DNA from: Blastocatellia bacterium
GTDB taxonomy: Bacteria > Acidobacteriota > Blastocatellia > UBA7656
Assembly (NCBI GenBank): GCA_035275065.1
Contig: DATENM010000023.1
Location: 71,215-135,214, forward strand
Direction of reading: 5' to 3'
Length of the DNA stretch: 64,000 nucleotides
The notes beneath the pieces are model-generated. The model was given only the letters and a program-made list of their open reading frames with translations. It was not told where the DNA came from and did not search any database. Position numbers and translations under genes: made by a program. Shown in pieces: positions 3,770 through 35,170 of the stretch. The stretch's first letter is position 1. The number at the start of each line of letters is the position of its first letter.

Positions 3770-5717
3770 TCGTATGCCTCTCGAAGAGCCAAAACTGGAC
3801 GACCGGGAGTTCGAGCAGTTGGTCAGGGAACTGCGCCTGCGCATCCCGCGCTACACAAAGGACTGGACCAACTTCAACGACAGTGACCCTGGCATCACGC
3901 TGCTACACCTTTTCGCGTGGCTTTCAGAGATGATGCTCTTCCGAATGAATCAGGTCCCGCTCAAGAACTATATAAAGTTCCTGAAACTGCTCGGCCAGGA
4001 ACTCCGGCCGGCGAGACCTGCCAGAGCGCGCCTGACCTTTACGGCAACCCCCGGAGCGCAGGCCAAACCGGTCCCGGAACGGGCGCAGGTTTCCGCGCAG
4101 ATCGATGATGGCGGCGAGCCCCTGATCTTTGAAACTGAAAGAGGGCTGGATGTGATAAGCCTCCCGCTCGAAGACGTGGGCATCTTCGATGGCGCGGCCT
4201 TCATAAATGTAACCGAAGCGAATAAGGCCCCCGGCACAAAGTTCCGCCCGTTCGGGTTTGCCCCCGACGTAGGTAACGCGTTTTATCTGGGGTTCAAGCC
4301 GCCTGACGAGCCGCTCGATGCGCAGGCCGAACCGTTCCCGCAAGAGATGACCTTCGCCGTCTTTTTGCCGCCGGAGACAACTGCCGGAAGGCCGCAGAAA
4401 TGCACAGGCGAGCAGAGCCCGCCCGTGCCCCCTGTCAGTCTCGTCTGGGAATTCCGCCCCAGGGCGAACGACACGACCTGGCAGCGACTGAACGTCTTCG
4501 AAGACGAGACGGCGGCCTTCACTCGCGAAGGATACATCCGCGTGGAAGGGCCGCGGGAGATAGAACCGTCTGTGGAGGCGCGCCTGAGCCCGACGCCTCG
4601 GTTCTGGATTCGCGTGCGGATTGCCGGGCCAGCTACTTACCCGGCGGGCCGAGCTCCGCAGATTGATTTCCTGCGCCCGAATACAGTCAATGCCGTGAAC
4701 CTCAGTACTGTGCGCGGGGAGATACTCGGCGAGAGCCAGGGGCAGCCGGGCGAGCAGTTTCAACTCTTGAGAAAACCCGTTGACAAAGCATCGCTGAAAT
4801 TGAGAACCGAGCTGCCCGACAGCGAGCCCGAACAGTGGACAAAGGTAGAGGATTTTTATGCCTCAAAGGCGGGCGATTCGCATTACACCCTCAACGCCAC
4901 AGCCGCGATCATTCAGTTCGGCGACGGGACGAAGGGCCGCATCCCCGAAGCGGGGGCGCAGGTGATTGCCACGGAATACCGATACGGCGGCGGCGCGCGC
5001 GGCAACAACGCGGGCAAGGGGTCTATAAAGAATCCGCAAACGGTACTGGAAGGCATAGATAAAGTTACCAACGAAAGGCCCGCTGTCGGCGGCGCCGACG
5101 AGCAGACGCTGGAAGAGATAAAAACCGAAGCGCCTTCGCTGCTCAGGCAGCGTAATCGCGCGGTGACGCCAGAGGATTTCAAGGCTTCGGTTGAAGAGAT
5201 GGGCGGTGTGGCTAAAGCGAGGGCCTTGTCGCTGTTCCACCCGGATCATCCGGGCGTAGAGGTGCCCGGCGCTGTCACGGTCGTGATTGTCCCTGACAAT
5301 GAAGAGAAACCACCAAAGCCTTCGGGTGATCTGATTCGCGAAATCTGCGCCGCGCTCGATGAAAAGCGGCTGCTTACGACCGAGGTCTTCGTCAAAGGCC
5401 CCGAGTATCAGGAAGTGCGCGTCGAGGCGCGCGTGACGGCCGAGCCATACGCTTCATTCAATGCCGTCACGATCTCTGTTATCAAAGCACTCGATAAGCT
5501 GCTGGACCCACGCCAGGGAAAATTCGGCGAGGAGCTGTTCCCAACAAGCTTGTACGGCACTATCTTGCAAGTGCCGAGCGTGGTGGCCGTGCTGTCGCTG
5601 AATGTCTTCGTCAACGGCAGGCGGCACGAAGGTCTTAAGCCAATCCAAGTGCCTCTCGACGGTCTGGTCTTCGGCCGTAATCACATCATCACGGTTGAGC
5701 CTCGACAGGATCAATAG
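3753..5717 (+). CDS. Baseplate J-like protein (gp6 / Afp11-like)
   Basis: 654 aa. The N-terminus (EFEQLVRELRLRIPRYTKDWTNFNDSDPGITLLHLFAWLSEMM) is the typical start of the Baseplate_J family. Confidence 0.8.
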   Translation: MKEQGDRMPLEEPKLDDREFEQLVRELRLRIPRYTKDWTNFNDSDPGITLLHLFAWLSEMMLFRMNQVPLKNYIKFLKLLGQELRPARPARARLTFTATPGAQAKPVPERAQVSAQIDDGGEPLIFETERGLDVISLPLEDVGIFDGAAFINVTEANKAPGTKFRPFGFAPDVGNAFYLGFKPPDEPLDAQAEPFPQEMTFAVFLPPETTAGRPQKCTGEQSPPVPPVSLVWEFRPRANDTTWQRLNVFEDETAAFTREGYIRVEGPREIEPSVEARLSPTPRFWIRVRIAGPATYPAGRAPQIDFLRPNTVNAVNLSTVRGEILGESQGQPGEQFQLLRKPVDKASLKLRTELPDSEPEQWTKVEDFYASKAGDSHYTLNATAAIIQFGDGTKGRIPEAGAQVIATEYRYGGGARGNNAGKGSIKNPQTVLEGIDKVTNERPAVGGADEQTLEEIKTEAPSLLRQRNRAVTPEDFKASVEEMGGVAKARALSLFHPDHPGVEVPGAVTVVIVPDNEEKPPKPSGDLIREICAALDEKRLLTTEVFVKGPEYQEVRVEARVTAEPYASFNAVTISVIKALDKLLDPRQGKFGEELFPTSLYGTILQVPSVVAVLSLNVFVNGRRHEGLKPIQVPLDGLVFGRNHIITVEPRQDQ

Positions 5718-5725
5718 GACCGTTT

Positions 5726-8386
5726 ATGCGACTTGAACCTCAAGGTGCGACATTCTGGTTGATCGGCGGCCAGGGCGGCTGGGAGAAGCGAACCGCCGAG
5801 ACGAGCCAGACTGCCGTAAACGACTCTGATGGCGTTCGCCTTGGGGCGGCGCGCGGCGGGCCGCTCTCGCTTGATGCGCCAGATTGCAGCCTCGGAGGTC
5901 TTATTCTTCCTCGCGGCTTTGCGCTCGACGGCCAGAACACTTTGTACCTTTTGAGCCGTGAAGACCTCTGCATCAAACGCTACGACCCGGAGACGCGCAC
6001 ATTTCAACGGCTGCCTGAGATTGGCGGCGCGGGGTCCGAGCCGCGCCAGTTTAAGAAGCCCAGGAACATCGCCATTGCGGGCAAATGGCTTTATGTAGCG
6101 GACTCTGAAAACCGCCGCGTCCAGGTATTTGATCTCGAAAACCTCGCGCTCACTGAAATCTGGGGGCCGACGGGAGCGCGCGCCGAGTGGCAGCCTGTTG
6201 ATGTCGCCGAACACAAAAGGAGTGTTTACATACTCGACCGTCACAAAGCCCGCATCTATCGCCATACGCCCGGAAGCCTTCTTCGAGAGCATTCCTCGTG
6301 TCCCGGCCGCGAGGACCAGTGGACCAGAATTGCGGTTGACCGGGAAGGTCGCATCTACTTGCTCAAAGAGATTAAAGATCAAGAACCTGTCCTTGAGATG
6401 TCTGACTGCAAAGGGCCTGGCTTTAAAGACGCCGGCACGCTTCGCGACCGATTCGACCCTCCGGCAATAAGGCTCGATGAGGCCGGGCGGTTCTGTCTTC
6501 CGCCGTCGCTCGCAAGACTATGCGCTCGGCAAATGCCGCGAGCCGCGCCCGCCCCGGAGGCGCAGCTAGGTCTGTGCGCGCCATTCGATAGGGAGCTGCG
6601 GAGATGTGAAGAACCGGCGGCTCCGAGGACGGTTCGGACCGCGGCAGGAGCTTTCCTGGTCTACGTCCTTGAGCGCGAGCAACGTCGTGTTCGCGCTTAC
6701 ACAATTGATGGGCTAAGACTGCGCCACGCCTGGGGCCACGCACTCGACTGGAAACCGGTCGATGTGGCCGCGCGCGGCATGATGGCCTGTGTGCTAGACG
6801 AAGACGGGACGGTCTATCGACACAGGGCTGGCCGGGAAGAGATACGCGCCGTTGTGCCCACGCGCGAAAGGCCGCCGATCCCTACGCGCATCGCCATTGA
6901 CAATAAAGGAGCGATCCTTCTTCACGCGCCCGGCGAGCCGACGGTCCTTGTCTATGACTGCCGGGAGAGCAGACGCGGGGAGAGACGCTATAGCGAAGTC
7001 GCCGACCTCTTTGAAGCAGCCGAACCGAAGGAAGCGCCCTCGCTATCTACCGGCCTGATCTTTGACAAGCAGGGCGAGCCGGTCGAATCGCTCGACCCAA
7101 AGGATCAGTCAGGGCTTGCGCTGTATCAGACCTCAGGTACGTGGCAGGGCAAACCGCTCGACAGCTCGATCTACAGATGTCAGTGGCATCGCATAGAATT
7201 GAACGCCTCCGGCCTTCCTCCAGGCAGCCGCATCGAAGTGAGAACCTACGCGCACGAGGAAGAGGAAGATGTTATAGGCGTGCCTGACCAACAGTGGCAG
7301 CACGCTTACACAATCCTTGCTCCTATTGAACCGCCACAGTGCGACCAGAAGGATGTTCGTAGATTTGAGTTCCTGGTTCAGAGCGGCAGCGGGCGTTACC
7401 TGTCGATCATGATGAAGCTCGACGCGGACAGCTTCAGCACCCCTGTCGTGCAATCGATCAAGGCGCATTACCCGCGAGAGTCTTATCTGAAATACCTGCC
7501 CGCGGCCTGGTCTGCCGACGACGAGAGTCGCATGTTTTTGGAGCGATTCCTGGCCATCTTCCAGACCGAGTGGGACGACATAGAACTGCGGATCGACGAG
7601 ATCGCGCAATACTTCGATCCCGAAGCGGTGCCGGACGGACCTTTCCTCGAATACCTCGCAAGGCAGTGGCTGGCCTTACCGCTTGAAGGCGACTGGAATC
7701 AAGGCCAGAAACGTAAACTGCTCGCCGCTGTGCCGAAGATATACCCGCATCGCGGCAAGCTTCGCGGCCTGCGCGATTTCATCGCGGTTTATCTGGCGAA
7801 CATGGCGAACCTGCCTGCCGACGAGGTGCGCGGCACGGATTTCCCGGTCATCGTCGAAGGGTTCAGAGAGCGGCAACACCTTATCCTCGCGGAGGGCGCA
7901 AGCAGGCTCGGACAATCAGGACCACCGCTGTGGAGCGCGAGTGTCACAAGAAGGCTGCAACTCGGGGTCTTCTCCCGCGAAGGCGAAGCAGAGCTTGTAT
8001 CTACGGGCGACCCTTCGCGCGACATCTTTCACCACTACGCTCACCGCTTCAGAGTGCTTGTCCCCGCAAGCTGGGTGCGAACCGCCGACGACGAGCGCAA
8101 GATACGGCGCGCGATTGAGGCCGAGAAGCCCGCGCAGACCCGCTATGACCTGTGCTTGCTTGATGCGCGATTCCGAGTCGGCGTGCAATCGACCGTCGGC
8201 GTTGACACGATTATGGGCGAAACGCCACTGACGACGCTGGGCTGTGAACATGTAACGGACCGTCCGCCGAGCCTGCCCCGCAGCGGGCGTCTCGGGTTGG
8301 ACACAATTTTGACTTCGGCCAGGGGAGACATGGTGATGCGACTCGCCCCGGGCGCTACCGTCGGAAAGGGGTCGCTGCTTGCCTAA
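5726..8386 (+). CDS. Large baseplate wedge component (Afp12 / P2 gpI-like), putative
   Basis: 886 aa, placed immediately after Baseplate_J, which is the conserved Afp12 position. There is no sharper domain call from sequence alone. Confidence 0.5.
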   Translation: MRLEPQGATFWLIGGQGGWEKRTAETSQTAVNDSDGVRLGAARGGPLSLDAPDCSLGGLILPRGFALDGQNTLYLLSREDLCIKRYDPETRTFQRLPEIGGAGSEPRQFKKPRNIAIAGKWLYVADSENRRVQVFDLENLALTEIWGPTGARAEWQPVDVAEHKRSVYILDRHKARIYRHTPGSLLREHSSCPGREDQWTRIAVDREGRIYLLKEIKDQEPVLEMSDCKGPGFKDAGTLRDRFDPPAIRLDEAGRFCLPPSLARLCARQMPRAAPAPEAQLGLCAPFDRELRRCEEPAAPRTVRTAAGAFLVYVLEREQRRVRAYTIDGLRLRHAWGHALDWKPVDVAARGMMACVLDEDGTVYRHRAGREEIRAVVPTRERPPIPTRIAIDNKGAILLHAPGEPTVLVYDCRESRRGERRYSEVADLFEAAEPKEAPSLSTGLIFDKQGEPVESLDPKDQSGLALYQTSGTWQGKPLDSSIYRCQWHRIELNASGLPPGSRIEVRTYAHEEEEDVIGVPDQQWQHAYTILAPIEPPQCDQKDVRRFEFLVQSGSGRYLSIMMKLDADSFSTPVVQSIKAHYPRESYLKYLPAAWSADDESRMFLERFLAIFQTEWDDIELRIDEIAQYFDPEAVPDGPFLEYLARQWLALPLEGDWNQGQKRKLLAAVPKIYPHRGKLRGLRDFIAVYLANMANLPADEVRGTDFPVIVEGFRERQHLILAEGASRLGQSGPPLWSASVTRRLQLGVFSREGEAELVSTGDPSRDIFHHYAHRFRVLVPASWVRTADDERKIRRAIEAEKPAQTRYDLCLLDARFRVGVQSTVGVDTIMGETPLTTLGCEHVTDRPPSLPRSGRLGLDTILTSARGDMVMRLAPGATVGKGSLLA

Positions 8387-9800
8387 AAAGGAGAGTGCGA
8401 ATATGAGCGAAGAGGATTACAAAGAATGCGCCGACCTGGCCCTTGAGCGGATGCGATATTTCACAGGGCGTTTTATGACTGCACGCGATTTTCGAGACGA
8501 GCAGGCTTATCATTGGACGCACAGGCTCCTGCACAACCGGATTCTACATGGCTGGGGTGTGGTCTGCGGGTTACATGTAACCGAGCATCCCTCAAAGGAC
8601 TGTCGTGATGATCACGTAAAGGTCAGTTCCGGCATGGCCATAGATTGTTGCGGAAGAGAGGTAGTCGTCAGCAAGAACCTCGTGCCTCCGCCGATACCGT
8701 GGAAGGAAAGGCCCGCCGAAACGGGTCAGTCATCAAACGAGAGCAAAGATCATGAAAAAGACCATGAGGGTGACCGGCGATACTACCCGCTGCTTTGCTT
8801 GGTGTATGAAGAGAAGCTTATAGAACAGGTCCCGGTCCTTTACAGTGAAGGCAACTGCGACGAGCAGAGGCGCGAATACAGCCGCATACTGGAAGGGTAC
8901 GAATTCAAGTGGAGCTGGGTGCGCCGCCGCGACCTGCCTAAGTACCACTGGAAGGTGCGCAGCAGAGGTTGCGACGATGAGTATGAACAGGATCGCACAG
9001 ATTACGATAGCACGGCCGATCAACAGGCGACGCAATCAGAGCAAGCTCTCGAAGAAGGGGGCAAGGAACAGACCCCTGAGCAGCGCGCGGATTACGAGGC
9101 CCGCGCAAGCTCACGCCCGCGCCCGTGTCCTGAGGACGATTGCGATTCTGACGGCGAGCACTACAAGAGTTGCCTCGCGCCCGCTTGTCCGCCGCACCAC
9201 TGTATCCCGATTGCCTGGATACGCTCCCGCCCCGGCTCGCCAATTGATAATGACGAAATCGTTATGATGGGCAGGCCGACGCTGCGCCCTCCGGTTCAAT
9301 CGCTCACGCACATCTGCGAAATCAACTGGCCGCATGGGGGAGTCATGTCGCGCGGTCACCTCGAACGGCTCAAGCGATTGAAGGTGCGATTCGACCGCAG
9401 GCTGAAGAAGCCGGAAAAAGGTGCGGGCAGGCGCGGCCCCTACGGCGTCAACGCTTCGACCTTCGTCGTGCAGTATGGCGCAAGGCAAGAGGACCTGGAT
9501 TTCGTCCCCTACACGACTTCCCCGCACGTCGAGCACGACTGCATAGGGGTTTATTCGCTTAGCCCTGAGGGGGCTGCCGAGGGCGAGCGGGCTTTTTCGC
9601 ATCTCGAAAACCAGGTCGTTTTCGTGACCCTGAAATGCGATTTCATTTTAGACTGCCACGGCGTGCCGGTTGACGGCAACCACCTCGGAGGGCTTTTGCC
9701 GACGGGAGATGGAATTCGCGGCGGCACGTTCGAGAGCTGGTTCCGAGTGCTGCCTGATCACGAGTACGAGAATTACAAGCGCGAGCACAGTCGCGACTAG
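8379..9800 (+). CDS. Paralog 1 of four: putative tail fibre or receptor-binding protein with the shared N-terminal domain
   Basis: 473 aa. The N-terminal ~100 aa (RYFTGRFMTARDFRDEQAYHW...HNRILHGWGVVCGLHV...VKVSSGMAIDCCGREVVV) is shared with the next three ORFs. The C-terminus is acidic and Cys-rich and is unique to this copy. Confidence 0.55.
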   Translation: MPKKESANMSEEDYKECADLALERMRYFTGRFMTARDFRDEQAYHWTHRLLHNRILHGWGVVCGLHVTEHPSKDCRDDHVKVSSGMAIDCCGREVVVSKNLVPPPIPWKERPAETGQSSNESKDHEKDHEGDRRYYPLLCLVYEEKLIEQVPVLYSEGNCDEQRREYSRILEGYEFKWSWVRRRDLPKYHWKVRSRGCDDEYEQDRTDYDSTADQQATQSEQALEEGGKEQTPEQRADYEARASSRPRPCPEDDCDSDGEHYKSCLAPACPPHHCIPIAWIRSRPGSPIDNDEIVMMGRPTLRPPVQSLTHICEINWPHGGVMSRGHLERLKRLKVRFDRRLKKPEKGAGRRGPYGVNASTFVVQYGARQEDLDFVPYTTSPHVEHDCIGVYSLSPEGAAEGERAFSHLENQVVFVTLKCDFILDCHGVPVDGNHLGGLLPTGDGIRGGTFESWFRVLPDHEYENYKREHSRD

Positions 9801-9819
9801 ACTGGAAGGAGTTACGGAT

Positions 9820-11712
9820 ATGAGCACCATGACGATGGCGCCGCAAACGGGCGGCCACCGCTGCAACTGCGGATGTTCCGACTGTATGGGTGAGTGCTGC
9901 GAGTTGGAGTATCTGGTGCAGCCGCGGTTCTTTTGTGGTCAGCTGTTGACGGACCAGGATCTCAACGCCCTGCTTGAATGGGTGAAAGGCAAAACGGCGC
10001 TCGCGCGCTACCGTGACGGCTGGGGAGTGGCCTGCGGACTTGATGTGCATTGCAGCGCGGGGCCGGGCAAGGAAGGGTTCGTGTCGGTGACTCCGGGATA
10101 TGCGATAGACTGCTGTGGCAACGACATCATCGTTCGCGAAGAGGCCGAGATAGACCTGTCGAAATACTGCCTTGTCGATGAAGGCCCTTGCAGGGACCGG
10201 GCTCCGATGTCCGCGCAAAGATCGGCAGCGCAATCGGGAACAACGCCCGGCACTCCGGGGCCGAATCTTAGTTTCGGCGGATGGGAGATTCAACAAAGCG
10301 AGGTCCAGGCGGTTGACCTTTTCATCGGTTACGCTGAGACCGCAAGCGACGCGCGAAACGCCCTTGCCAAAAGAGCCTGCGACGCCGTCGAAGTATGCGA
10401 ATACACGCGGACGCACGAGGGATATCATCTCTACGCGAAGAAGGCCGAACACTGCGACCATTCCGCTGAACGACGCGCGCTCGATTGGGAAGAAGAGTAC
10501 GGAAGAAAGCTCAAAGAACTCTTCAATGATCTTCAAGCCATCTCCACCATTGGCAATGCAAAGCAGAGGGTTGAGAGGTTGAGCCAGTGGCTCACGAGCC
10601 ACGCGCTCCACAGCTTCAGCTTCATCCGAGAATGGCTGTGCGAACTTCAAAGACTGAACGAACCGACGGCCGGCTGGTTCGAGAAGATGATCTTCTGGTT
10701 GGTGCAGGACTGGCGCAGCCATTACCTCGGGTGTGAATGTTACGGCTGCGGCCCCGACACGGGCGTGCATCTGGCGAGGGTATGGCTTTGGCGGCGAAAG
10801 GACGAGCGCGGCAGGGCTTACTGCAAGGTAATATATATCAATCCCTATCCGCCGTTCCGCCGCCCGCTTCAGAGGGAATGCTGGCCCGGCAGGCCCGGTT
10901 ATTTAAACGTCGCGCGCTTCATCTGGCAGCCTACCGACTACGTCGTAGGAGAGTTGAGCAGTCTTGGCTTTGGCAGTATTTCGACGGCGCCGTTTACATA
11001 TGGAAACCTCGAAGGGTTGCGCACGAAGTTTGCCGATGATCATCTGTTCGTGCCGCGCGGGGATGGCACGAGAGCCCAAAGATTGATCATCTATTCATAC
11101 CAGGACATCTGCCAGCAGAGCCGCGTGGTGCGTTTCGGGGTCGAAACGGCGCCCATCAGAACAGATGTAAACGTGAACGCTGCATTGACCAAAGAAGATG
11201 TGAAGCCGGTGAATCAAACAACCACAGGCACAGCCGCAAGCTCAGGCTCTACACCAACCACAGCCAACGCGGAGGATGCAAAGCCGGCTACCGGGCCGGG
11301 CTTAGAGCCGCCCGCTTCACCGACTACGCCCCTTGCTGATCCGACAGCGGGACCGCCGGTAAACTCAAACGGTCCGGCCTTAATTGCAAATAACAGCCCG
11401 GCCGCTGAGATAGTCATAGCGCCGGATGTCCCAATCACGCCAGCCGTTGCAAATCCGGTTGGCAGGACGGCAATTGACCCGGACACCCTTCCGCCAACCC
11501 ACCCCCTGCTTGAGATTCAGCAAGTGAAGGGTATCGGGCCCGTTTACGCGATGCGCCTCGAAGAGGCTGGCATTATGAACCTGCGAGACCTGTCCAAGAG
11601 CAATCCGGCCACAGTGAAGCAGGCGCTGGCCGGCGGCCCGCCGAATCGCCCGGCCGAAGATATTGTCCAGGAAGCCGCAGAGCGGATCAGAAAGTTGAAG
11701 GAAGGAACTTAA
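9820..11712 (+). CDS. Paralog 2 of four: shared N-terminal domain, Cys-rich N-terminus, Pro/Thr-rich linker and a C-terminal HhH-like motif
   Basis: 630 aa, starting MSTMTMAPQ after a GGAAGGAG RBS. It has a CNCGCSDCMGECC cluster and the shared domain (PRFFCGQLLTDQDL...YRDGWGVACGLDV...VTPGYAIDCCGNDIIV). A P/T/A-rich stretch follows. Near the C-terminus is LLEIQQVKGIGPVYAMRLEEAGIMNLRDL. Confidence 0.55.
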   Translation: MSTMTMAPQTGGHRCNCGCSDCMGECCELEYLVQPRFFCGQLLTDQDLNALLEWVKGKTALARYRDGWGVACGLDVHCSAGPGKEGFVSVTPGYAIDCCGNDIIVREEAEIDLSKYCLVDEGPCRDRAPMSAQRSAAQSGTTPGTPGPNLSFGGWEIQQSEVQAVDLFIGYAETASDARNALAKRACDAVEVCEYTRTHEGYHLYAKKAEHCDHSAERRALDWEEEYGRKLKELFNDLQAISTIGNAKQRVERLSQWLTSHALHSFSFIREWLCELQRLNEPTAGWFEKMIFWLVQDWRSHYLGCECYGCGPDTGVHLARVWLWRRKDERGRAYCKVIYINPYPPFRRPLQRECWPGRPGYLNVARFIWQPTDYVVGELSSLGFGSISTAPFTYGNLEGLRTKFADDHLFVPRGDGTRAQRLIIYSYQDICQQSRVVRFGVETAPIRTDVNVNAALTKEDVKPVNQTTTGTAASSGSTPTTANAEDAKPATGPGLEPPASPTTPLADPTAGPPVNSNGPALIANNSPAAEIVIAPDVPITPAVANPVGRTAIDPDTLPPTHPLLEIQQVKGIGPVYAMRLEEAGIMNLRDLSKSNPATVKQALAGGPPNRPAEDIVQEAAERIRKLKEGT

Positions 11713-11724
11713 CCTCCGGTAATC

Positions 11725-14244
11725 GTGATGGAAAGCAAGCGCGTCTATTATGTTGAAAGACAGCGGCTCACCGCCGCGGATCTTCAGTCCGAGCAGGAAT
11801 ACCTGAACGGGTTGGACCTGCGCCACAACCTCAACCAACACATGCCGGGCATCATTCGCGGTCTCCAAATCCGACTCGCCTCTGGCCAGTTCCAGGTTGA
11901 GCCCGGCATCGCGATTGATTCGTTCGGCCACGAGCTTTTGCTTCAACAGGCAGAGCCCCTATCGCTTAATGAAGGCGCCGAGTGCGTTGATACCTGGCTC
12001 ATCTACTGCCGCGAGCAGTCGCGGCTGCGTAAGCCCGGCCGCGCCCCATGCTCAGAGAATACTTTCGAGCGGTGGCGCGAGGCCCCACGCGTACTCGTTA
12101 CACCTGCTCACAAAGACAATGATCCAGAGTTGCCGGCAGAGGGTGCGGTTTTCCTGGGCAGGATCAACTGCGGGGACCGACGAGACATCGCCTATACGGG
12201 GTTGCGCGGCATAGGAGTCGCTGACCCCGGCGTGCGCGCGCTGATGCAGGTCGGCCCGCGTACGGATCGCGACCCTTATGGCTTTGTGTTGAGAGTTGCC
12301 GATGAGTCAGGCAACCTCGCTAAAAGAATCGCGATGGACCGGCGCGGCAATAATTACTTGTTCGGCATGGTGCAGTTACTCGATTGCCAACGGACGCTCG
12401 TTGTGCCATTGCTTCAGAATACGCTGCGCATGATGGTCAAGGCCAGTAAGCCTGGAGAATCTGGAAAGCAGATTCAGGTAATGATAAGGGAGACACAACA
12501 AGGGAATGAGATTAATCTGACATTGATTGACGAAAGCGGTACTCCGCAGCCCGAAGTGCTAACTGTCACGGCCGGCAGACCGCCCAAAGACATAGTAGAG
12601 GAGTTAAACAAGAAATCGGCACTGGCGACGTTCATCCTTGTCAACAAAGATACTGAACCCGGTGATGAGAATGTCCAGTTGCTGAGTGTGCAAGACGATG
12701 TCCACGCCATTCTGACCAGCGCCAGGGCAATGTTAGAGCTCGCCGACTGGTCGAAAGAGGCTCCGGCAGAAATCATACGGCGCGGGTGCTATGATCCATT
12801 GCCCAACGAGAGCTTAACTGATGGGGACGAGCCGAATGGTCTATCTTTTCGTCCTGTATCGAAGCCACCCAAAGGCACACCGCGGCCGAGAATCTACAGC
12901 GTAACAGTGCAATCCGGCGACCGCACTATAGAACGGCTGCGCCTTGATCTTGGCGAAAAGAAGGAAAACGATACCACCGTGCGGCTGTCGATAGGCGCGC
13001 CACCTCAGGACGATACGCCCTCCGGCATGTGGCTGTCGGTCAGCGGCAATTGCCTGGTTTCTCTCAACCCCAAGAAGGACCCAAAGGACGAGGACGAAGA
13101 AACCCTTCCCGCTAGAATCGAGGTAACTGGCTCGATTGAGCAGTCGCCTATAAAGCCCGACCCCACGAATCCACTCTTTCGAGATCTGCTCGTCGCCGCA
13201 TGGTTAGCCGGATTGCGTAGCTCGATTCAGGCTTCGACGACTATTAACGTTACCTTCGAGCAAGTCCCCCAGTTGATCGAAACCAAAAAGCCATGGGGCT
13301 ACACCGTGCGCCTGACCAACAACGAGAAAAAAGAGATCACCGCTGACAAGCTGCTTGAGACCATACCCGTTTCTAAGAAAGCGCCGATACGAAGCCTGGG
13401 GACGCAAGTCTCAATCCCTCCCAGCAGCAGCACCACCATCTCTGTGAGTCACGAGAAGGATGAAATCCCGGCGGGATTTATGGACATCGAAATCATGGCC
13501 AGCGGAAAGATCGGAAACTTCCCCTGGTGGAAATCCAACGAGAAGAAACATATCCCCGTCCTGGAAACGCCGGTGATCGATACCTCGGATGTCCCCGATT
13601 CGGTGCCGCCTTCGGCAACCTGGAGCCATGAATTCACTATCAGGAACACTGCTACGCTGCCCCTGACATTGAAGGAAGTGATCGTTACCGAAGATGCGAC
13701 CGTCCGCAATCTGTTGCCTATGCCGACCGAGATATTACCTGGGGGTGAGAGAGTTGTCGGGCCGGTCCCGCATCCAATCGAGGTAACGTCAGACCTGAGA
13801 ATCGCCTTATCCATGAAATACCAGTGGCAGAACGGCCCGGAAGATACGCTCTCGCTGGATGAGCCGAAAATAGTAAAAGTAGAACAACAACTCCAGTTTG
13901 TTGAGTTCGAGACCCCGGGCGAAATCGAAGTAGAAAGGGACTGGGCGTATGGGTTAAAGCTGAAGAACAAGAGTGCGATGCCGTTGACCGAAATCTCGCT
14001 CAAGCACAGGCTCATAAGCGAAAACCTTCCCGTAATGCCGTTTGTAGCCATACCCGATGTGCCGACAACTCTGGACCCGAACGAGTCCACGCTTTCGTTA
14101 CATATTGCCGGCGTCAAAGCTCCGGTTTCGACCCAGGACACGACAGTCCGGGTGGAGATCGAGGCGCAATACGAACGGGGCGGAAGGGCCTGGCTTTTGA
14201 AGCCGGTTTTCTCAGATGAGATCGAAGTCACCGATGGAAGTTAA
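11725..14244 (+). CDS. Paralog 3 of four: shared N-terminal domain with a long beta-rich C-terminal region
   Basis: 839 aa. Shared domain: RQRLTAADLQSEQEYLNGL..HN.......RGLQI....FQVEPGIAIDSFGHELLL. The remainder is unique. Confidence 0.55.
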   Translation: MMESKRVYYVERQRLTAADLQSEQEYLNGLDLRHNLNQHMPGIIRGLQIRLASGQFQVEPGIAIDSFGHELLLQQAEPLSLNEGAECVDTWLIYCREQSRLRKPGRAPCSENTFERWREAPRVLVTPAHKDNDPELPAEGAVFLGRINCGDRRDIAYTGLRGIGVADPGVRALMQVGPRTDRDPYGFVLRVADESGNLAKRIAMDRRGNNYLFGMVQLLDCQRTLVVPLLQNTLRMMVKASKPGESGKQIQVMIRETQQGNEINLTLIDESGTPQPEVLTVTAGRPPKDIVEELNKKSALATFILVNKDTEPGDENVQLLSVQDDVHAILTSARAMLELADWSKEAPAEIIRRGCYDPLPNESLTDGDEPNGLSFRPVSKPPKGTPRPRIYSVTVQSGDRTIERLRLDLGEKKENDTTVRLSIGAPPQDDTPSGMWLSVSGNCLVSLNPKKDPKDEDEETLPARIEVTGSIEQSPIKPDPTNPLFRDLLVAAWLAGLRSSIQASTTINVTFEQVPQLIETKKPWGYTVRLTNNEKKEITADKLLETIPVSKKAPIRSLGTQVSIPPSSSTTISVSHEKDEIPAGFMDIEIMASGKIGNFPWWKSNEKKHIPVLETPVIDTSDVPDSVPPSATWSHEFTIRNTATLPLTLKEVIVTEDATVRNLLPMPTEILPGGERVVGPVPHPIEVTSDLRIALSMKYQWQNGPEDTLSLDEPKIVKVEQQLQFVEFETPGEIEVERDWAYGLKLKNKSAMPLTEISLKHRLISENLPVMPFVAIPDVPTTLDPNESTLSLHIAGVKAPVSTQDTTVRVEIEAQYERGGRAWLLKPVFSDEIEVTDGS

Positions 14245-14271: not shown

Positions 14272-15525
14272 ATGACGACCGTGATTGTCCCGCGAGTGCA
14301 TTTTTTTGACAAACAGTTTTTGCGGGTGGACGAATTCAGAGATGAGCAGTTATACCAGCTTGCTGCCAGGCGTCGTCATAACGTAGCCCATCATTCCTGG
14401 GGCATCGTTCTGGGCCTGGAGATCGCGCAGGAAGATGGGGCGGTGATCGTTCGCCCCGGCATGGCTATTGATGGCTACGGGCGCGAGCTGGTGCTGCCCG
14501 ACAAGGAGTACCTTGCGGAGGGAGCTTTTGATGATCTAGGCGCAGACCGGCTCGATGTCTGGCTCGTCTATTCCCGCCGCGATGGGGAGGCTGCGCCCGA
14601 AGGATATGGTGGCTGCGGACCTGCGGGTGCGCGCGACGCTTATCGATCAGATGAGGTTCCACGGGTCATTGTCGAGAGGCCCGTTTCAAATACTGTTGAT
14701 GCGCGGCGTCCGCCGGGCGTGCAGGAGAGTGTGCTGAGCTCGAAAGTGCCCCTGATCTCTGACGATGATAATGACAGGTGGAGGGTCTATCTCGGCCGTA
14801 TCATTCGCCTTCCCGACGGCACGATTATGATCGATTCCGCGCAGCGGTCTTATGTCGGACTGGTAGGCGAGGTGATAGATCATCCGGCCAATGGTGCGCG
14901 CCTGGAGATCGGCAAACAATCGAGCAACAACGACAAGCGCAATATAGGTGAGGTTACATACGAATATGAGAAAGGCGAAGACGCTCAGCGGAAACAGTCG
15001 CGGCGCTTCGCTATATTCGTCCCTGAAGCTGACGTGTCGGGGTCGGCTGAACAGCAAGTGAAAATATCGCCTCGCTTCGACATTCTCCAAAGCGGAGTAA
15101 TGCGTATCCGCGGCAGAACTATAATCAACGGCAACCTACAGATCACCGATGGGGCCGTTCAGTTTAACGAGCCGGCCAGCTTTAGCCCGGAGAACGCCCC
15201 GCAGAAGCCTTCAATTTACCGGATAACATCCACAGCCGGCGGGGGCGACCAGTTACGAATAGACCTCGGCTCAGAAAACACTATCGACCGTGAGTTCGTC
15301 ATCGGGTTTTCTAATGAGGAAGGTGAGTTTGTCACTTGCCTCAAGCTAGAGCTGAAGGACAATGATCCAAATAAACTGACGCCACTCGTCACGATTAACG
15401 GAGACCTCATGTTGAATGGCGAGGTGGTAGGAGGCAATTTAGTTCCGCGCGCCTTGAGTCAGGAAGCCTTCAACGCCATCCTGGCAAGCTTCCAGGCGGG
15501 GGTCGCCGCCAGCAATAACGTATAG
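14272..15525 (+). CDS. Paralog 4 of four: shared N-terminal domain
   Basis: 417 aa. Shared domain: KQFLRVDEFRDEQLYQL...HNVAHHSWGIVLGLEI...VIVRPGMAIDGYGRELVL. The C-terminus is unique. Confidence 0.55.
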   Translation: MTTVIVPRVHFFDKQFLRVDEFRDEQLYQLAARRRHNVAHHSWGIVLGLEIAQEDGAVIVRPGMAIDGYGRELVLPDKEYLAEGAFDDLGADRLDVWLVYSRRDGEAAPEGYGGCGPAGARDAYRSDEVPRVIVERPVSNTVDARRPPGVQESVLSSKVPLISDDDNDRWRVYLGRIIRLPDGTIMIDSAQRSYVGLVGEVIDHPANGARLEIGKQSSNNDKRNIGEVTYEYEKGEDAQRKQSRRFAIFVPEADVSGSAEQQVKISPRFDILQSGVMRIRGRTIINGNLQITDGAVQFNEPASFSPENAPQKPSIYRITSTAGGGDQLRIDLGSENTIDREFVIGFSNEEGEFVTCLKLELKDNDPNKLTPLVTINGDLMLNGEVVGGNLVPRALSQEAFNAILASFQAGVAASNNV

Positions 15526-15545: not shown

Positions 15546-17564
15546 ATGGAACCGCGCATTGGACATTGGCACTGCCGCTACAGGCTAATAGGCGCGCGCC
15601 AGGAGGCTGCGCTTGCGGTCGAACGCCTTGAGCGAACGGTGCGGCCGCGCGTGTCCGCGGCTTATGCCGACGCCCTCGCCCACGCCTTCGAAAACGATCC
15701 GGCGGTCTATTGTCTGCGCCGCCTCAACGTGCGGCTTGTGCTCGACGGCGCAATGGCCGAAACCGAGGCGAACCTCGCACGTAGATGGGCCGACCGCTTA
15801 GGGTCTGCCGTGGTAACGAGCATTGCGCGTGACGGCGACCATAGCGACAACCTCGTTCGGTTCATGGATGAGCCTGATTATGTGGCGCACTTCCTCCTCG
15901 ACCTGTTGAATGATATGGCATGGCAGCGCTGGTATTACGGCGCGTTTTCAAAGCTCCGTGGTCGTCCGAAAAAAGAGGCAGTGCTGTTCTTATTGATGGA
16001 GCACCGAGAGCATCTTTCGGCAATCCTCCGGCGATTGGCGATCCTCGGCTGCCTCAGCCGAGTCCTCGCGCTGATTGACGAACCTGCCGCGCGCGCTCTT
16101 TGGTCCGAAGCTGGGGAGACTCGCGCCGAGCTCCACAACGCAGATGGGCATCGCATTTTCGTTCGCAGCGCGATTCACATACTCCGCCTGCTCGGCGTTT
16201 GGCCCACCTCAGCGCCTTCTGAGTCAGCCGTTCTTGAAGAGTACCTGAAGAACCGTCCATTGATGCCGGACTGGACGGACCGTCGCTCGCTTGCGGCAGC
16301 AGTGCTTAACGTAATACGCCACGCAACTGACCGCGCATACGTGTCGGGCTTGAACTCCGAAACCGCCGAGAAGCTCCCGGAAATCGGCGAACAAATCTCG
16401 TCGGAATTCGACTGGCTCGATGTTGAATGGCTGTGCAACGCGCTGTTTGCGATTCTGGCTAAAACCTTGCCCGAACTACGGCAGTCCACTTTGCCATCTC
16501 GCAATCCGGCAGCCACCCCCCTGCACCGCCAGATTGTCGAGCGCATCCGCGACCTGTTGCGGGCGGGCAAAGTCAGGCTCAATCTAAATGAGGCGGACAC
16601 GGCACTGAACGCTATCAGGCTCTATGCAGCGCTGGCGGCTGCCGACCCTGAGCTTGCAAGCCGGGCCGCCGCGCGAGCCGTTATCGATCACCTGTTGATA
16701 TGCGCCAGGTCGTTTGCGGAAGCTTCCGGCCCCCACACAATCCTGGCTGCGATGCGAATGGGCGGCGGCGCGCCCTCGTTCGCAATACTCCCTCGCCGCG
16801 CACAAGACGCACTTAACACGGCTGCAAGTTATGGCCCCGCCGCTGTAGAAGCTCTGGAAGAGATCATCGCGTCAAGAGTGGCTGGAGGCACAGAGGCTTT
16901 CACAAAGCGGTTTCAAACCGAGTGTGCGGGACTTTTTTTGGCGGCGCGAGCGATCATTGATGCGCGCATTACGCAGGTGGCCACGGCTTGCGGGGCGGGG
17001 CCGGTCTCATCTGTTTTGCTTGCCATCGGTATCGTATGGATGGGACCGCGCGCGCTTCGCGATACGATTACTGACGAGGGCCTCGCCTTCTGGTGCGGCC
17101 TTGCTCCTGAGGAGCATTGCGCCACAGAGATGCTCGCAGCCCTTGACGTTGAGGGTTGCCACCGACTTCTTGTGAAGGTGCGTGAGCTGTTTGAAGACCG
17201 CGCCGCGCTCTACTCGTCTCTTAAAGAGATTGCTGCGCCAGAATCCTGTCTGGCCGATTTGATCGCAGACCTGCCTCCCGGCGTGATCGTCAACGAATCG
17301 CTCGCGCTCACAGCGATCTACGCGATCAGACTTTGGGCGCAGTGGCTGCCCGGCCTGTCCGGTTCGAGCCCGCTTTACCTGCTGCGTAATATGTTGCGGC
17401 GAGCGGGCGCGCTGCAAATCAGCGATCATTGCGTAGATGTCCGTCTTCAGCCCGGCCCGTTCGACGTTGTGCTTGAGATGGCCTCCTACACGAAGGAACT
17501 CTCCGGGGTCACGTGGCTCGGAGGCCGGAAGGTTATCTTCCACATCGAGCGGAGCTCCGAATGA
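15546..17564 (+). CDS. Ala/Leu-rich helical protein in the Afp14 position; candidate tail-length (tape-measure-like) protein
   Basis: 672 aa with a predominantly helical composition, directly upstream of the AAA+ ATPase and overlapping its start. The assignment is by position and composition only. Confidence 0.35.
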   Translation: MEPRIGHWHCRYRLIGARQEAALAVERLERTVRPRVSAAYADALAHAFENDPAVYCLRRLNVRLVLDGAMAETEANLARRWADRLGSAVVTSIARDGDHSDNLVRFMDEPDYVAHFLLDLLNDMAWQRWYYGAFSKLRGRPKKEAVLFLLMEHREHLSAILRRLAILGCLSRVLALIDEPAARALWSEAGETRAELHNADGHRIFVRSAIHILRLLGVWPTSAPSESAVLEEYLKNRPLMPDWTDRRSLAAAVLNVIRHATDRAYVSGLNSETAEKLPEIGEQISSEFDWLDVEWLCNALFAILAKTLPELRQSTLPSRNPAATPLHRQIVERIRDLLRAGKVRLNLNEADTALNAIRLYAALAAADPELASRAAARAVIDHLLICARSFAEASGPHTILAAMRMGGGAPSFAILPRRAQDALNTAASYGPAAVEALEEIIASRVAGGTEAFTKRFQTECAGLFLAARAIIDARITQVATACGAGPVSSVLLAIGIVWMGPRALRDTITDEGLAFWCGLAPEEHCATEMLAALDVEGCHRLLVKVRELFEDRAALYSSLKEIAAPESCLADLIADLPPGVIVNESLALTAIYAIRLWAQWLPGLSGSSPLYLLRNMLRRAGALQISDHCVDVRLQPGPFDVVLEMASYTKELSGVTWLGGRKVIFHIERSSE

Positions 17565-19823: not shown

Positions 19824-22800
19824 ATGAGTGCCACTAAGGACCTGTCTTTAGACGTCACCCCGCAGCGCGACCGCCGCCCGCGCGAAGCATCCACCGGTAT
19901 GGATTCAAGCATTGGCGCTGGTCAGTCATTATTCGCTCCTGCGGCAGAGCGCGAAGGTGTCCTGCCTCCGTCTAACGGTGTTCCGTCGGCAGCCCGCGCT
20001 GCCAACCTCATGACCGCTGCGGAAACGTTGCCCGATGTCGCTGCTCGCGCACAGATGAGCATCGCTCTCCAACGCAATGTCGGCAACGCACGCATGGGGG
20101 CCATGTTCGGAGCGATGGCCGGACCTAAGGCTTCTCCGCCTGCACCGCCGCCAATTGCTTCGCCTGCGCAGGAGTCGAATCGCCCATCGCCCATACCTTC
20201 AGCAGTACCGGCACAGCCGGTCAGTCCCGCTGTGCCCCCGACCCAAGTGGAACCTGCCAGGCCCACAGCTCTGCCACCAGCAAAGACCGCGCCTGTGCCG
20301 ACTCTGCTCGCGCCGATCTCACCCGCGCCTACATCGCCCGCCGAGGCTCAGACGGTTCCATTCGCAGCGACACCGGCCAAATCGCAAGAGCCGCCCGTGT
20401 CGGCCAAAAAGGCCGCGACTGGAACTGCCGCGACTGAAAAGGCACCCGAGCCTGGCTCAGAAGAATCAGCCAAATCTGTTGAGGCCGCGCAGCCGGCGAA
20501 GAAAGGCTCGACCGCGCGCGGCGCCAAGCCTGGGGAAAAGGCCGAAGCGGGCAAAGCGCAGACGGCTTCCCCCGAAGGCGCGGCAGAAGAAGGCGGATCG
20601 GGCGCAGGGCGCGGCAAAGGCGGACGTTCGGTTCAGCTTAAGATGCCTGAGCCGCCTTCGGACCTGACGCCAGCCGCTCGCCAGCGTGTTCAAAAAGTGA
20701 AGGCATCGGCTGGCCAGGCGGCAGCCTCGCACGCGGCGTTGCCGTCGGCCCCGGAATCGGTGAAGCAGGCGCGCACCGCCGTGACCGAGCCGCAGCAGGA
20801 AGCCAACGCCCACGCGGGCGCAGACCTGGTTGACGCACTAGGACAACGGCCAAAACCGAGCCCGCAGATCGAGGCAATCTGCGCAGAGATCCGACTGGTG
20901 ATCGAGGAGAAGCGCCCACCTGACGAAAAATCGCTGGTCAAGGCTGACCCGGAACAGATGGGACAGGAGGCTGGCGATAAGGTGAAGGGCAATGTGCAGG
21001 GGGACGTGAAGCGCGTCGATCAGAGCTACGACTCGCTTGAGAAGACGCCCACAGGTACGCCGCAGCAGGGCCAGCCGCTTGAAGCTCTGCCCGCCAGTGC
21101 GCCTGTTCCAGCTATGAATGCGTCCCATGCAGCGCCCGACTCAGTGCCAGCGCAGAACGTCTCGCTTAATCAAGACTCCGAAGATGCCAAAGCGCGCATG
21201 GGCGAGGCAGGCATGAACAAAGCGCCTGCCAAACTGGTCCAGACCGGTCCCGTTGCCGAAGCCCGCGCCGCGCAGGGCGAGCTTGAGAAAACCGCCGCCG
21301 AGGACCCGGCCAAGGTGCTGGCCGCGCAGCAGGCATCATTGAGCAAGGCCAGCGCTGATATGGCGGCATTGCAACAACAGGCGCTCAACGCGCTCGCCAC
21401 CTCGCGCAGCAAGACAGTCTCCGGCACGACCGGCCAGCAGAAGCAGATGGTTGGGTCTGAAGAGCAGAAACGTACACAGGTGAGCGCGCAGGCACAGGCT
21501 ATCTTTACGGGTGCTCAAACTCGCGTCAACGGCCTGCTCCAGACGCTCCCGCAAACCGCCATGCAGAAGTGGGACGCGGGGATCACCATCGCCAAACGTC
21601 AGTTCAAACAAGAACTGAAGACGGTCGAGGAGTGGATCGAAAAGCGCCATGAGAGTATCTTAGTCAGTTTTGCGGACCGGCTCTTTGGTCTGCCTCCGTG
21701 GGTCACCGCCAAATACAACATCGCCGAGAAAAACTTCGGCAACGACGTGTGCAACCTTGCGCGCGAGATTTCTATTGAAGTCAACGGCATCATCATGACG
21801 TGCGAGGCGATTATCGCCGATGCACGGACAAAGATCGCAAATCTCTTTGCTTCGCTGCCCGAAAGCCTGCAAGCGTGGGCCGCTGGCGAGCAAGCAAAGC
21901 TTGGCGCGCAGCTCGATACGCTGCAAAATCACGCGCACGAAGTCCGCGACAACTTTGACCGCGAACTCGTAGGCCGCGCCGCGCAGAGCGTGCAGGAAGT
22001 CCGCGAGGAAATCCACGCGCTGCGTGAGAAGGCGAAGGGGTTCCTCGGCAGGCTCGCCGACGCGATTGATCGTTTCGCCCAAGACCCCGCGAAGTTCATC
22101 CTCGAAGGGTTGCTCGACCTGCTCGGCATCCCGCCCGCCTCGTTCTGGGCGGTGGTGGCGAAGATACAGAAGGTCATCGGCGACATAGCGGACGATCCTG
22201 AGAAGTTCGCCAACAATCTCATGGCCGCCGTCGGCAAGGGGTTCACACAGTTCTTCGACAACATCCTTGACCACCTGCTGCACGGCTTCCTCGATTGGCT
22301 GACGGGCGGGCTGGCGGCGGCCGGCGTCACGCTCCCGAAGGACCTGTCGCTCAAGAGCATCATCACATTCGTCCTGGAGTTGATGGGCATTACGTGGCCG
22401 CGCATTCGAAAACTTCTTGCGAAACACATTGGCGAAGAGAACGTCGCGCTGCTTGAAAAGGCCTATTCCATCGTCGCCAACCTGGTCGCGCTGGGGCCTG
22501 AGGGCATCTTCGAGATGATCAAGGAGAAGTTGAACCCGCAGGAGATTCTCGATCAGATCATCAAGGCGGCAGTAGATTACATGATGAGCGCCATCATCAA
22601 GGCCGTGAGCGCGCGCATCCTCCTGCTGTTCAACCCGGTGGGCGCAATCCTTCAGGCGATTGAGGCAATCTACAAAGTTCTCAAGTGGATCTTCACAAAC
22701 GCGGCGCGCATATTCCGATTGATCGAAACCATCGTGAACGGGATCGCGGACATCATCGCGGGCAACATCGGCGGCATGGCCAACGCTGTCGAGAAAGCAC

Positions 22801-35000: not shown

Positions 35001-35020
35001 AGCCGTGCGGTAAGCCTGAT

Positions 35021-35100
35021 CCACTACCACTTTCGTGTTATTAAAAAATTACTGACTGTAGGGATTCGCTTTTCAGTTGGAACCCATACTCTACGAGAGG
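35021..35100 (+). repeat. Divergent member of the intergenic element family (CTACCAC...AAAAAATTACTGACTGTAGGGATTCGCTTTTC), upstream of the second kinase
   Basis: It shares AAAAAATT.CTG.CT.TAGGGATTCGCTTT with the copy at 37100-37190 and the CTACCAC motif with copies B and C. Confidence 0.5.
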
Positions 35101-35170
35101 ACTGCTGTACCGCTGGAAACAATCTTGTGAGGCTGACAACGACAGCCTGGCTCCTCCGAAAAAAAGAACC

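Follow-up and report, generated by a model that had tools for sequence, protein, structure and literature searches.

A putative baseplate fibre protein with a tethered helix-hairpin-helix tip in a contractile injection system operon of a Blastocatellia bacterium

The 64,000-nt stretch of DNA analysed here (the window) comes from a Blastocatellia (Acidobacteriota) MAG and carries a contractile injection system (CIS) operon. The operon encodes a tube/LysM protein, a two-gene VgrG, PAAR, gp25, Cis11, Cis12, four paralogs with a Cis13-type N-terminal domain, and the AAA ATPase Cis15. Related loci have an identical gene order, and sheath and gp19 tube genes are also present there. An apparent VgrG frameshift was dismissed as an artefact, because the two-gene VgrG arrangement is conserved in related loci. 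The baseplate wedge proteins are encoded by cis11 (baseplate J-like) and cis12 (Tail_P2_I plus NHL repeats) at positions 3774–8386 on the + strand, the strand that also encodes all features described below. Four consecutive ORFs follow. The first (8403–9800; 465 aa) is Cys-rich, has a C-terminal GGTFESWFRV motif, and is a conserved upstream partner of the second (9820–11712; 630 aa), which is the subject of this analysis. The third (11728–14244; 838 aa) and the fourth (14272–15525; 417 aa) are Cys-poor. The preliminary description had called the ORF of interest a second paralog, as it indeed is, since the Cis13-type N-terminal domain is common to all four products. A PHROGs scan of the four paralogs and a 672-aa neighbour gave zero matches, and a transmembrane scan of all proteins of the locus found no such segment in any of the four paralogs.

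The ORF is complete, running from an ATG at 9820 to a stop codon at 11710–11712, and an independent gene call yields the same 630-aa product. A ribosome-binding site, GGAAGGAG (9804–9811), can be read 8 nt upstream of the ATG. An identical protein at NCBI is named [quoted passage not shown].

What are the parts of this protein? First, the N-terminus bears a Cys cluster, CNCGCSDCMGECCELEY (residues 15–31; 9862–9912). The Cys-rich stretch that had been singled out from the letters alone, CNCGCSDCMGECC (residues 15–27), is conserved in ~90% of homologs and is not a chance occurrence. Across 120 homologs, Cys fills 93%–98% of the positions aligned with C17, C26, C27, and C39, and 82%–88% of those aligned with C15 and C19. 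The family consensus is CxCGCxxCxxxCCxL[DE]CL; the CxC/CC spacing is conserved, the family's C31 is Tyr in the target protein, and AF2 models residues 1–30 with low confidence (pLDDT 45–64). The cluster may be a metal-thiolate motif of metallothionein or Zn-cluster type, or it may form disulfides. Second, residues ~32–125 (9913–10194) form a Cis13-type domain with a TssK/phage RBP-shoulder-like fold, presumed to be a trimeric baseplate-attachment domain. It matches NCBIfam CIS13_fam (NF053767) with an E value of 3.2e-10 over residues 33–113, covering only model positions 5–86, and the full-length score of 39.8 bits lies below the equivalog cutoff of 370. Third, a central body with many conserved Cys (residues ~149–442; 10264–11145; AF2 pLDDT mostly >90) is predicted to consist of a long beta-hairpin, a four-helix bundle (215–303), and an alpha/beta domain (316–442). 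The core upstream of the linker is 440 aa long and Cys-rich, and family-wide Cys conservation and co-loss identify three co-varying pairs: 305–354, 212–431, and 31–106, the last of which the target protein lacks. Fourth, residues 443–560 (11146–11499) make up an acidic linker (pI 4.1) of 17.8% Pro, 16.9% Ala, and 15.3% Thr, together 50%, which is presumed to be a disordered tether. A low-complexity Pro/Thr/Ala-rich linker had been noted before, but as ~130 aa in the middle of the protein; it is 118 aa long and lies in the C-terminal third. A tandem repeat search in the linker DNA found none. Fifth, the protein ends in a C-terminal (HhH)2 domain (residues 561–630; 11500–11709).

Pfam HHH_5 (PF14520) scores 26.9 bits on the full-length protein, just under the gathering cutoff of 27 bits, and 33.0 bits (E 8.5e-8) on the isolated module, which passes it; 37 of 40 family modules match the same model. 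The first helix-hairpin-helix motif is VKGIGPVYAMRLEEAGIMNLRDL (residues 569–591; 11524–11592), and the canonical hairpin h-x-x-h-x-G-h-G-x-x-x-A-x-x-h-h is present in LEIQQVKGIGPVYAMRLEEAGI (residues 564–585). In an alignment of 40 family modules, conservation reaches 90% or more at G571, I572, L580, G584, I585, and L591; the G-I-G hairpin hardly varies and has conserved basic residues downstream. A five-helix (HhH)2 fold is predicted confidently, with a Pro-rich insertion in the second hairpin of the target protein. The preliminary description had asked whether the motif might instead belong to a generic coiled coil, an idea that does not survive the fold prediction. Its suggestion of a flexibly tethered domain, by comparison, fits well: the predicted (HhH)2 fold lies behind a low-complexity linker that, relative to close homologs, is the least conserved region of the protein and has the most indels.

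The best PDB profile matches of the module all act on nucleic acids (the Rad51/RadA N-domain at 9.7e-9, L32e, Pol IV, and Pol X), with the NusA acidic repeats scoring lower (5e-5). Charge, taken as a proxy for DNA binding, is neutral and not decisive: family modules have a mean net charge of −0.2 and a pI of 6.9, and the target module, at +1, is not clearly basic. The tip profile matches 23,825 library proteins at E ≤ 1e-3, marking it as a generic mobile domain. A search of 1.84 billion representatives returned as its top matches tandem arrays of 3–26 generic HhH modules, with no functional clue beyond that of a common mobile module.

HhH-tipped proteins of this family are widespread. At least 104 are found in Acidobacteriota, Chloroflexota, Actinomycetota, and Proteobacteria; cultured carriers include Actinoplanes spp., Paractinoplanes polyasparticus, and Nocardioides pini. 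The module is always C-terminal, behind a spacer of 1–498 aa. On the core tree, the state of the tip has changed at least 22–27 times. Some relatives carry Ig-like shaft domains (DUF7507, DUF11, PKD_6) ahead of the tip. Most of the other tailed members have Arg/Lys-rich tails, as in Streptomyces, Amycolatopsis, and Chloroflexota: a net charge of at least +4 in the last 20 residues is seen in 19 of 32 tailed non-HhH members versus 20% of background ORFs (p 1e-6, kinship ignored). No HhH module was found elsewhere in 83 related loci or in the window, and no stand-alone HhH ORF lies beside the tail-less cores. Neither the tip nor the core had a tblastn match among 50,697 phage records, and the literature searched yielded no paper that connects HhH domains with CIS or phage fibres.

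How does the protein compare with known systems? One of the closest known systems is Cis13 (All3316) of the Anabaena thylakoid-anchored CIS, with which it shares the homologous N-terminal baseplate-binding domain and a gene position after cis11/cis12. The C-terminal part of All3316 decides where the baseplate is held (PMC8894136). All3316 is short, consisting of the N-domain, a triple helix, and a transmembrane helix (PMC8894136), whereas the target protein additionally has a Cys-rich body of ~300 aa, a disordered tether, and an HhH tip. Since the paralogs have no transmembrane segment, they can be rejected as membrane anchors of the Anabaena type; the maximum 19-residue Kyte-Doolittle hydropathy of the target is 1.06. 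The best structural match of the core is the crown trimer of Cis19 (All3314; PDB 7B5H; Foldseek E 2e-5, probability 0.96), although TM-scores are low (0.17), identity is 12%–13%, and the profile match is weak and confined to the N-domain (E 0.003). Six Cis19 trimers surround the baseplate, and their flexible distal parts have been proposed to be small target-binding fibres; unlike the target, Cis19 has 1476 aa, another distal part, and no HhH. In haloarchaea, the outer part of a Cis13/Cis19-type protein has been postulated to hold the CIS at the cytoplasmic membrane.

Other likenesses are more distant. The N-domain has the shoulder-domain fold of TssK (the T6SS baseplate) and of phage RBPs, but no sequence similarity to TssK, the lactococcal siphophage RBPs (1358, p2), HFTV1 gp42, or the cyanophage A-1(L) fibre is detectable (PHROGs and phage tblastn empty), and the head and tip domains of these proteins are unrelated to those of the target. 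Afp13 and Pvc13 of classical eCIS occupy the same operon position and share a presumed peripheral fibre role, yet Pfam, NCBIfam, and PDB sequence and fold searches found no homology to such fibres. Afp13 and Pvc13 are adenovirus-fibre-like and, to our knowledge, have no HhH tip. The protein had been described as unusual for a tail fibre, which is true against described fibres but not within its own family, where Cys cluster and HhH tip are the rule. Among HhH proteins, archaeal RadA and eukaryotic Rad51 carry (HhH)2 as an N-terminal appendage of a recombinase ATPase, whereas in the target it tips a structural fibre at the C-terminus. ComEA-type competence DNA receptors provide a precedent for an HhH domain that works outside the cytoplasm and binds DNA regardless of sequence; their similarity to the target is weak and partial (ComEA-related 2duy, E 9e-5, 22 residues), and they are otherwise unrelated.

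The reading we favour, with a probability of roughly 0.4, is that the protein is a peripheral, fibre-like component of the CIS baseplate whose tip, on its flexible tether, serves as a multivalent anchor to a polyanion, with DNA as the most likely one. The Cis13/TssK-type N-domain, behind the conserved Cys cluster, would fix the protein to the Cis11/Cis12 wedge, the presumed attachment site by analogy with Anabaena Cis11–Cis13 contacts. The compact Cys-rich body, the ~118-residue acidic Pro/Thr/Ala tether, and the 70-residue (HhH)2 domain would then follow outward in that order. By analogy with Cis13 and Cis19, six trimers might sit at the baseplate; if so, a particle would carry as many as 18 weak binders and gain avidity from their number. 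The tip itself would act as a low-specificity anchor to the phosphate backbone, probably that of double-stranded DNA. Candidate ligands would be the producer's nucleoid before release, or else extracellular DNA, whether it surrounds lysed producers, belongs to the biofilm matrix, or lies on target cells. In relatives without the HhH tip, the same task may fall to a C-terminal tail that is rich in Arg/Lys and follows a Pro-rich spacer.

The first alternative, which we consider rather unlikely, is that the tethered (HhH)2 is a protein–protein module, engaging either another HhH/SAM-like domain, so that adjacent fibres are bundled or particles cross-linked into arrays, or a host factor encoded off-locus. 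However, the sequence profile places nucleic-acid enzymes and RadA above NusA, and the canonical G-h-G hairpin is kept. A comparison of gene content between HhH-tipped and other loci associated no family with the tip (all p > 0.2); no locus gene co-varies with it, and there is therefore no sign of a dedicated protein partner encoded in the locus. The Arg/Lys-rich tails that replace the tip in relatives are also easier to reconcile with a polyanion than with a specific protein as the ligand. Second, the CIS could be a classical extracellular particle with the HhH tip binding a non-DNA polymer of the target cell, such as phosphodiester-linked teichoic acids, LPS, or capsule phosphates. Like receptor-binding tips, the module has a distal position and has been exchanged repeatedly as a unit, and the Ig-like shafts of some relatives and the lack of a transmembrane segment in every paralog agree with this. 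Pro/Thr linkers and pairwise co-varying Cys, both found here, are typical of extracellular proteins. Cys counts, however, are not biased to even numbers (81 even versus 64 odd), which leaves an all-disulfide extracellular fold unproven, and we know of no precedent for HhH domains that bind non-nucleic-acid polymers. This account seems unlikely. Third, the module may be a neutral accretion without specific function in this protein, being a very common mobile domain that about one third of the family does without (some tail-less members may be truncated gene calls). Against this very improbable reading, 104 of 166 full-core members, drawn from at least four phyla, have kept the module, and invariably at the same end of the protein (counts that take no account of phylogeny), and among close homologs it is 60%–64% identical and free of indels while linker identity is 32%–56%. 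Fourth, the “effector-like module” of the preliminary description, or a nuclease borne by the fibre, is effectively refuted: a JGI label, “flap endonuclease-1-like 5' DNA nuclease” (COG3743), stands on several family members and the module resembles H3TH/HhH parts of DNA enzymes, but the labelled members show the HhH part only, Pfam and NCBIfam find no PIN-like or nuclease family, the core fold is fibre/TssK-like, and no catalytic domain is detectable by Pfam, NCBIfam, PHROGs, or fold searches.

What would a polyanion-binding tip mean for CIS biology? Where they have been studied, the outer parts of Cis13/Cis19-type proteins decide where a CIS is held or what it recognises, and a widespread family has a DNA-binding-type domain at that very position. 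Why a CIS should bind DNA is a matter of speculation. It is possible, if doubtful, that these CIS particles dock to DNA through tethered (HhH)2 modules, either to the producer's nucleoid before lysis or, once lysis has occurred, to extracellular DNA from the matrix or from lysed neighbours. If true, DNA docking would be a third mode of CIS anchoring, in addition to attachment to membranes (T6SS, thylakoid CIS) and to free particles that carry receptor-binding fibres, and the Arg/Lys-tailed relatives would represent a simpler version of it. The HhH module is small and soluble. The tip may also be usable as a swappable targeting module on engineered particles. For soil CIS, the HhH-tipped family offers a concrete, testable handle on function and targets.

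The 630-aa product of the ORF at 9820–11712 (+) is a baseplate fibre-like protein of a contractile injection system (CIS). On a flexible, variable tether it holds a helix-hairpin-helix (HhH) domain, bearing out the preliminary description's reading of a flexible tethered domain. The closest relatives of the HhH domain make contact with nucleic-acid backbones; in related proteins, Arg/Lys-rich tails stand in for it. As read from the sequence, the ORF is complete (630 codons), with a ribosome-binding site (GGAAGGAG) 8 nt 5' of it. An independent gene call on a public contig yields the same 630-aa product, and the NCBI entry [quoted passage not shown] is identical to it.

The gene is housed in a CIS operon. 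The first gene is a 65-aa ORF, followed by a CIS tube/LysM protein, a spike in two genes (a 374-aa VgrG-like protein and a 192-aa OB-fold protein), PAAR, gp25, Cis11 (baseplate J), Cis12 (Tail_P2_I with NHL repeats), four genes in a row whose products have a Cis13-type N-terminal domain in common, a 672-aa protein without assigned function (15546–17564), a WHD-AAA ATPase (Cis15), and a ~1435-aa protein (19824–24131). Our gene is number two of the four Cis13-type genes, in agreement with its earlier designation as the second paralog. The stop and start codons of the spike genes (1270–2394 and 2391–2969) overlap. A frameshift was rejected as the cause of this split because the same two-gene spike recurs in three related loci (L001, L002, and L084), meaning that it is genuinely two-gene. 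In Cis12 (5726–8386), an NHL-repeat (beta-propeller-type) N-terminal region precedes the Tail_P2_I/CIS12 part; this region is an unusual baseplate extension, and homologous loci also have NHL matches, albeit faint ones. The 672-aa and ~1435-aa proteins are large, conserved in the loci, and encoded on either side of the Cis15 ATPase gene. Neither window protein has a match in Pfam or NCBIfam; the L002 homolog of the ~1435-aa protein bears an eCIS_core (DUF4157) domain, which is typical of cargo or adaptor proteins of extracellular CIS (eCIS). Just downstream of the operon, on the opposite strand, is a sigma-54-dependent response regulator (25240–26571, −), and after it come two HisKA_3 sensor kinases (31782–36445, +), one with Reg_prop/Y_Y_Y propeller repeats; these are possible regulators of the CIS locus. 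The rest of the window, from 30 to 64 kb, is ordinary chromosome.

What kind of CIS protein is this? An N-terminal Cys cluster (CNCGCSDCMGECC, residues 15–27) is followed by a Cis13-type N-domain (residues ~32–125, matching the N-terminus of NCBIfam CIS13_fam with E 3.2e-10), a body (~149–442) modelled by AlphaFold2 as a long beta-hairpin, a four-helix bundle, and an alpha/beta domain, an acidic linker (443–560, pI 4.1), and the HhH module (561–630). The linker is 50% Pro+Thr+Ala, consistent with its earlier description as rich in these residues, and no repeat was found in its DNA. AlphaFold2, using a 120-sequence alignment, predicts the body confidently (mean pLDDT 85, most blocks >90); residues 1–30, which include the Cys cluster, reach just 45–64. 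The top three Foldseek matches in the PDB are chains of 7B5H (E 2e-5 to 8e-4), and the core (the first ~440 residues) also resembles the HFTV1 tail fibre gp42 (7.7), the cyanophage A-1(L) long tail fibre (6.9), TssK (6.6), and the phage p2 RBP (6.6). The 7B5H chains are All3314, or Cis19, which surrounds the baseplate of the Anabaena CIS as six “crown” trimers and whose flexible distal parts have been suggested to be small target-binding fibres. Anabaena Cis13, also trimeric, binds the baseplate through its N-domain and fixes the CIS in the thylakoid membrane by a C-terminal helix (PMC8894136), and attachment of haloarchaeal CIS to the cytoplasmic membrane via Cis12/Cis13 has been postulated. 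Our protein lacks any hydrophobic segment (maximum hydropathy 1.06), and its membership of the CIS13 equivalog was rejected (39.8 bits versus 370). We therefore name it Cis13/Cis19-like. From the Anabaena proteins, we infer its trimeric state, copy number, and baseplate position.

The HhH module is real. The preliminary description had noted an HhH-like C-terminal motif, with a generic coiled coil as the alternative; the Pfam match, the profile match to Rad51/RadA, and the AlphaFold2 model all support the HhH fold. Specifically, Pfam HHH_5 (cutoff 27 bits) scores 26.9 bits with the full-length protein and 33.0 bits (E 8.5e-8) with the isolated module, and matches 37 of 40 homologous modules; Cdd1 and DUF4332 give weaker, overlapping matches. 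A profile of the 40 modules covers the entire N-terminal (HhH)2 domain of P. furiosus Rad51/RadA (E 9.7e-9), followed by haloarchaeal L32e, Pol IV, and Pol X, and lower down by NusA acidic repeats (5e-5) and a ComEA-related protein (9e-5). Residues 556–630 have a pLDDT of 92.4. The module was not found elsewhere in the window or in 83 related loci, on either strand. In the protein library, its profile matches 23,825 proteins at E≤1e-3, the best being tandem arrays of the module. Outside the window, proteins P0121–P0270 from this search contain 3 to 26 tandem (HhH)2 copies in up to ~3100 aa, most having HhH-type Pfam families only; they recall topoisomerase V-like HhH arrays.

The protein has 254 homologs in the protein database and 270 relatives in a scan in which each GTDB species is represented by one genome. 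These occur in Acidobacteriota, Chloroflexota, Nitrospinota, Trueperaceae, Verrucomicrobiales, Actinomycetota (Amycolatopsis, Kutzneria, Actinoplanes, Nocardioides, and two Streptomyces), and Proteobacteria (Massilia, Lysobacter, and Kiloniellaceae), with synteny kept in the related loci inspected. Of the 166 non-redundant members whose core is complete, 104 end in the HhH module, 30 stop at the core, 19 have a basic tail (last 20 residues at net +4 or higher), and 13 have another tail. The spacer ahead of the module is 1–498 aa long (median 87) and may be a short link, Pro/Thr-rich as here, or made of Ig-like domains, e.g., DUF7507, DUF11, or PKD_6. Net +4 or more is reached by 19/32 non-HhH tails longer than 15 aa and by just 20% of background ORFs in the same loci (binomial p 1e-6, kinship ignored); basic tails (e.g., ...PRKRSRNR) are mostly preceded by a Pro-rich stretch. 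In a neighbour-joining core tree, the tip state changes at least 27 times, versus 56 when shuffled. Thus, the tip is heritable yet has been swapped time and again, as a functional module at the distal end should be. Identity to the closest homologs is 70–92% in the Cys cluster and N-domain, 60–64% without indels in the HhH module, and 32–56% in the linker, with up to 34 gapped positions.

All 23 cysteines (3.7% of the protein) lie within residues 1–431; paralog 1 (8403–9800) has 17 (3.6%), and other locus proteins contain 0–1.8%. The N-terminal cluster, correctly picked out from the sequence beforehand, follows the family signature CxCGCxxCxxxCCxL[DE]CL: C17, C26, C27, and C39 are kept in 93–98% of homologs, and C15 and C19 in 82–88%. 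We conclude that it plays a conserved structural part at the end nearest the baseplate; it may bind metal, form disulfides after release, or both. Tyr31 (9910–9912) and Arg106 (10135–10137) are Cys in 93–96% of relatives, and these positions are lost together in 14 of 167 sequences and singly in 2 and 3. Three public contigs, not necessarily independent assemblies, carry the same protein, which argues against a one-off assembly error. Similarly, Cys 305 and 354 are both lost in 42 cases (singly in 2 and 1) and Cys 212 and 431 in 88 (singly in 27 and 0), with weaker co-loss for 117–335, 78–274, and 98–310. Such pairwise loss of sequence-distant cysteines looks like disulfides or two-ligand sites. 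There is no bias toward even numbers of Cys per core (81 even versus 64 odd; typical count 23–31). The GWGVxCGL and AIDCCG cysteines are common to paralog 1 and our protein and absent from paralogs 3 (11728–14244) and 4 (14272–15525). Paralog 1 ends in a conserved ..GDG..GGTFESWFRV motif and then a charged tail, and in 50 of 55 non-redundant loci, spanning several phyla, the homolog of our gene is immediately preceded by an ORF whose product has this G..F.SWF ending. Hence, the two genes are a conserved pair, and their products may form one complex.

What might the tip do? We put the probability of a nucleic-acid anchor at roughly 40%. The tip would be a low-specificity polyanion anchor, with DNA the most plausible ligand. 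Six trimers, as for Cis13 and Cis19, would give 18 tips per particle, each with an estimated reach of ~10 nm on average and ~40 nm fully extended, so weak single contacts at many tips would add up. CIS particles assemble in the cytoplasm, beside the nucleoid, and lysis releases extracellular types along with genomic DNA, so the particles could conceivably be tethered to the nucleoid or captured in extracellular DNA. Lysis is the stated release route of extracellular CIS (PMC8213781). Counting against an anchor, the HhH modules are charge-neutral, the module is mobile and very common, and the HhH fold also mediates protein contacts. A protein-interaction role is about half as probable as an anchor, and the absence of any locus gene that co-varies with the tip argues weakly against a dedicated locus-encoded protein partner. 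The same weight goes to the tip being a receptor-binder for a non-DNA surface ligand. The “effector-like module” proposed initially, or a nuclease, deserves very little weight because the protein has no detectable catalytic domain.

The Cis13/TssK-type attachment domain, Pro/Thr linkers, and the HHH_5 domain are already known, and databases already name the protein “HhH domain-containing.” No description of such a CIS fibre family was found in the searchable literature. The novelty lies in how these parts are combined and in the conservation of that arrangement: across a widespread family of CIS fibres, an (HhH)2 domain or a basic tail forms the distal module. The finding is of moderate interest now; DNA docking, if demonstrated, would make it considerably more interesting.
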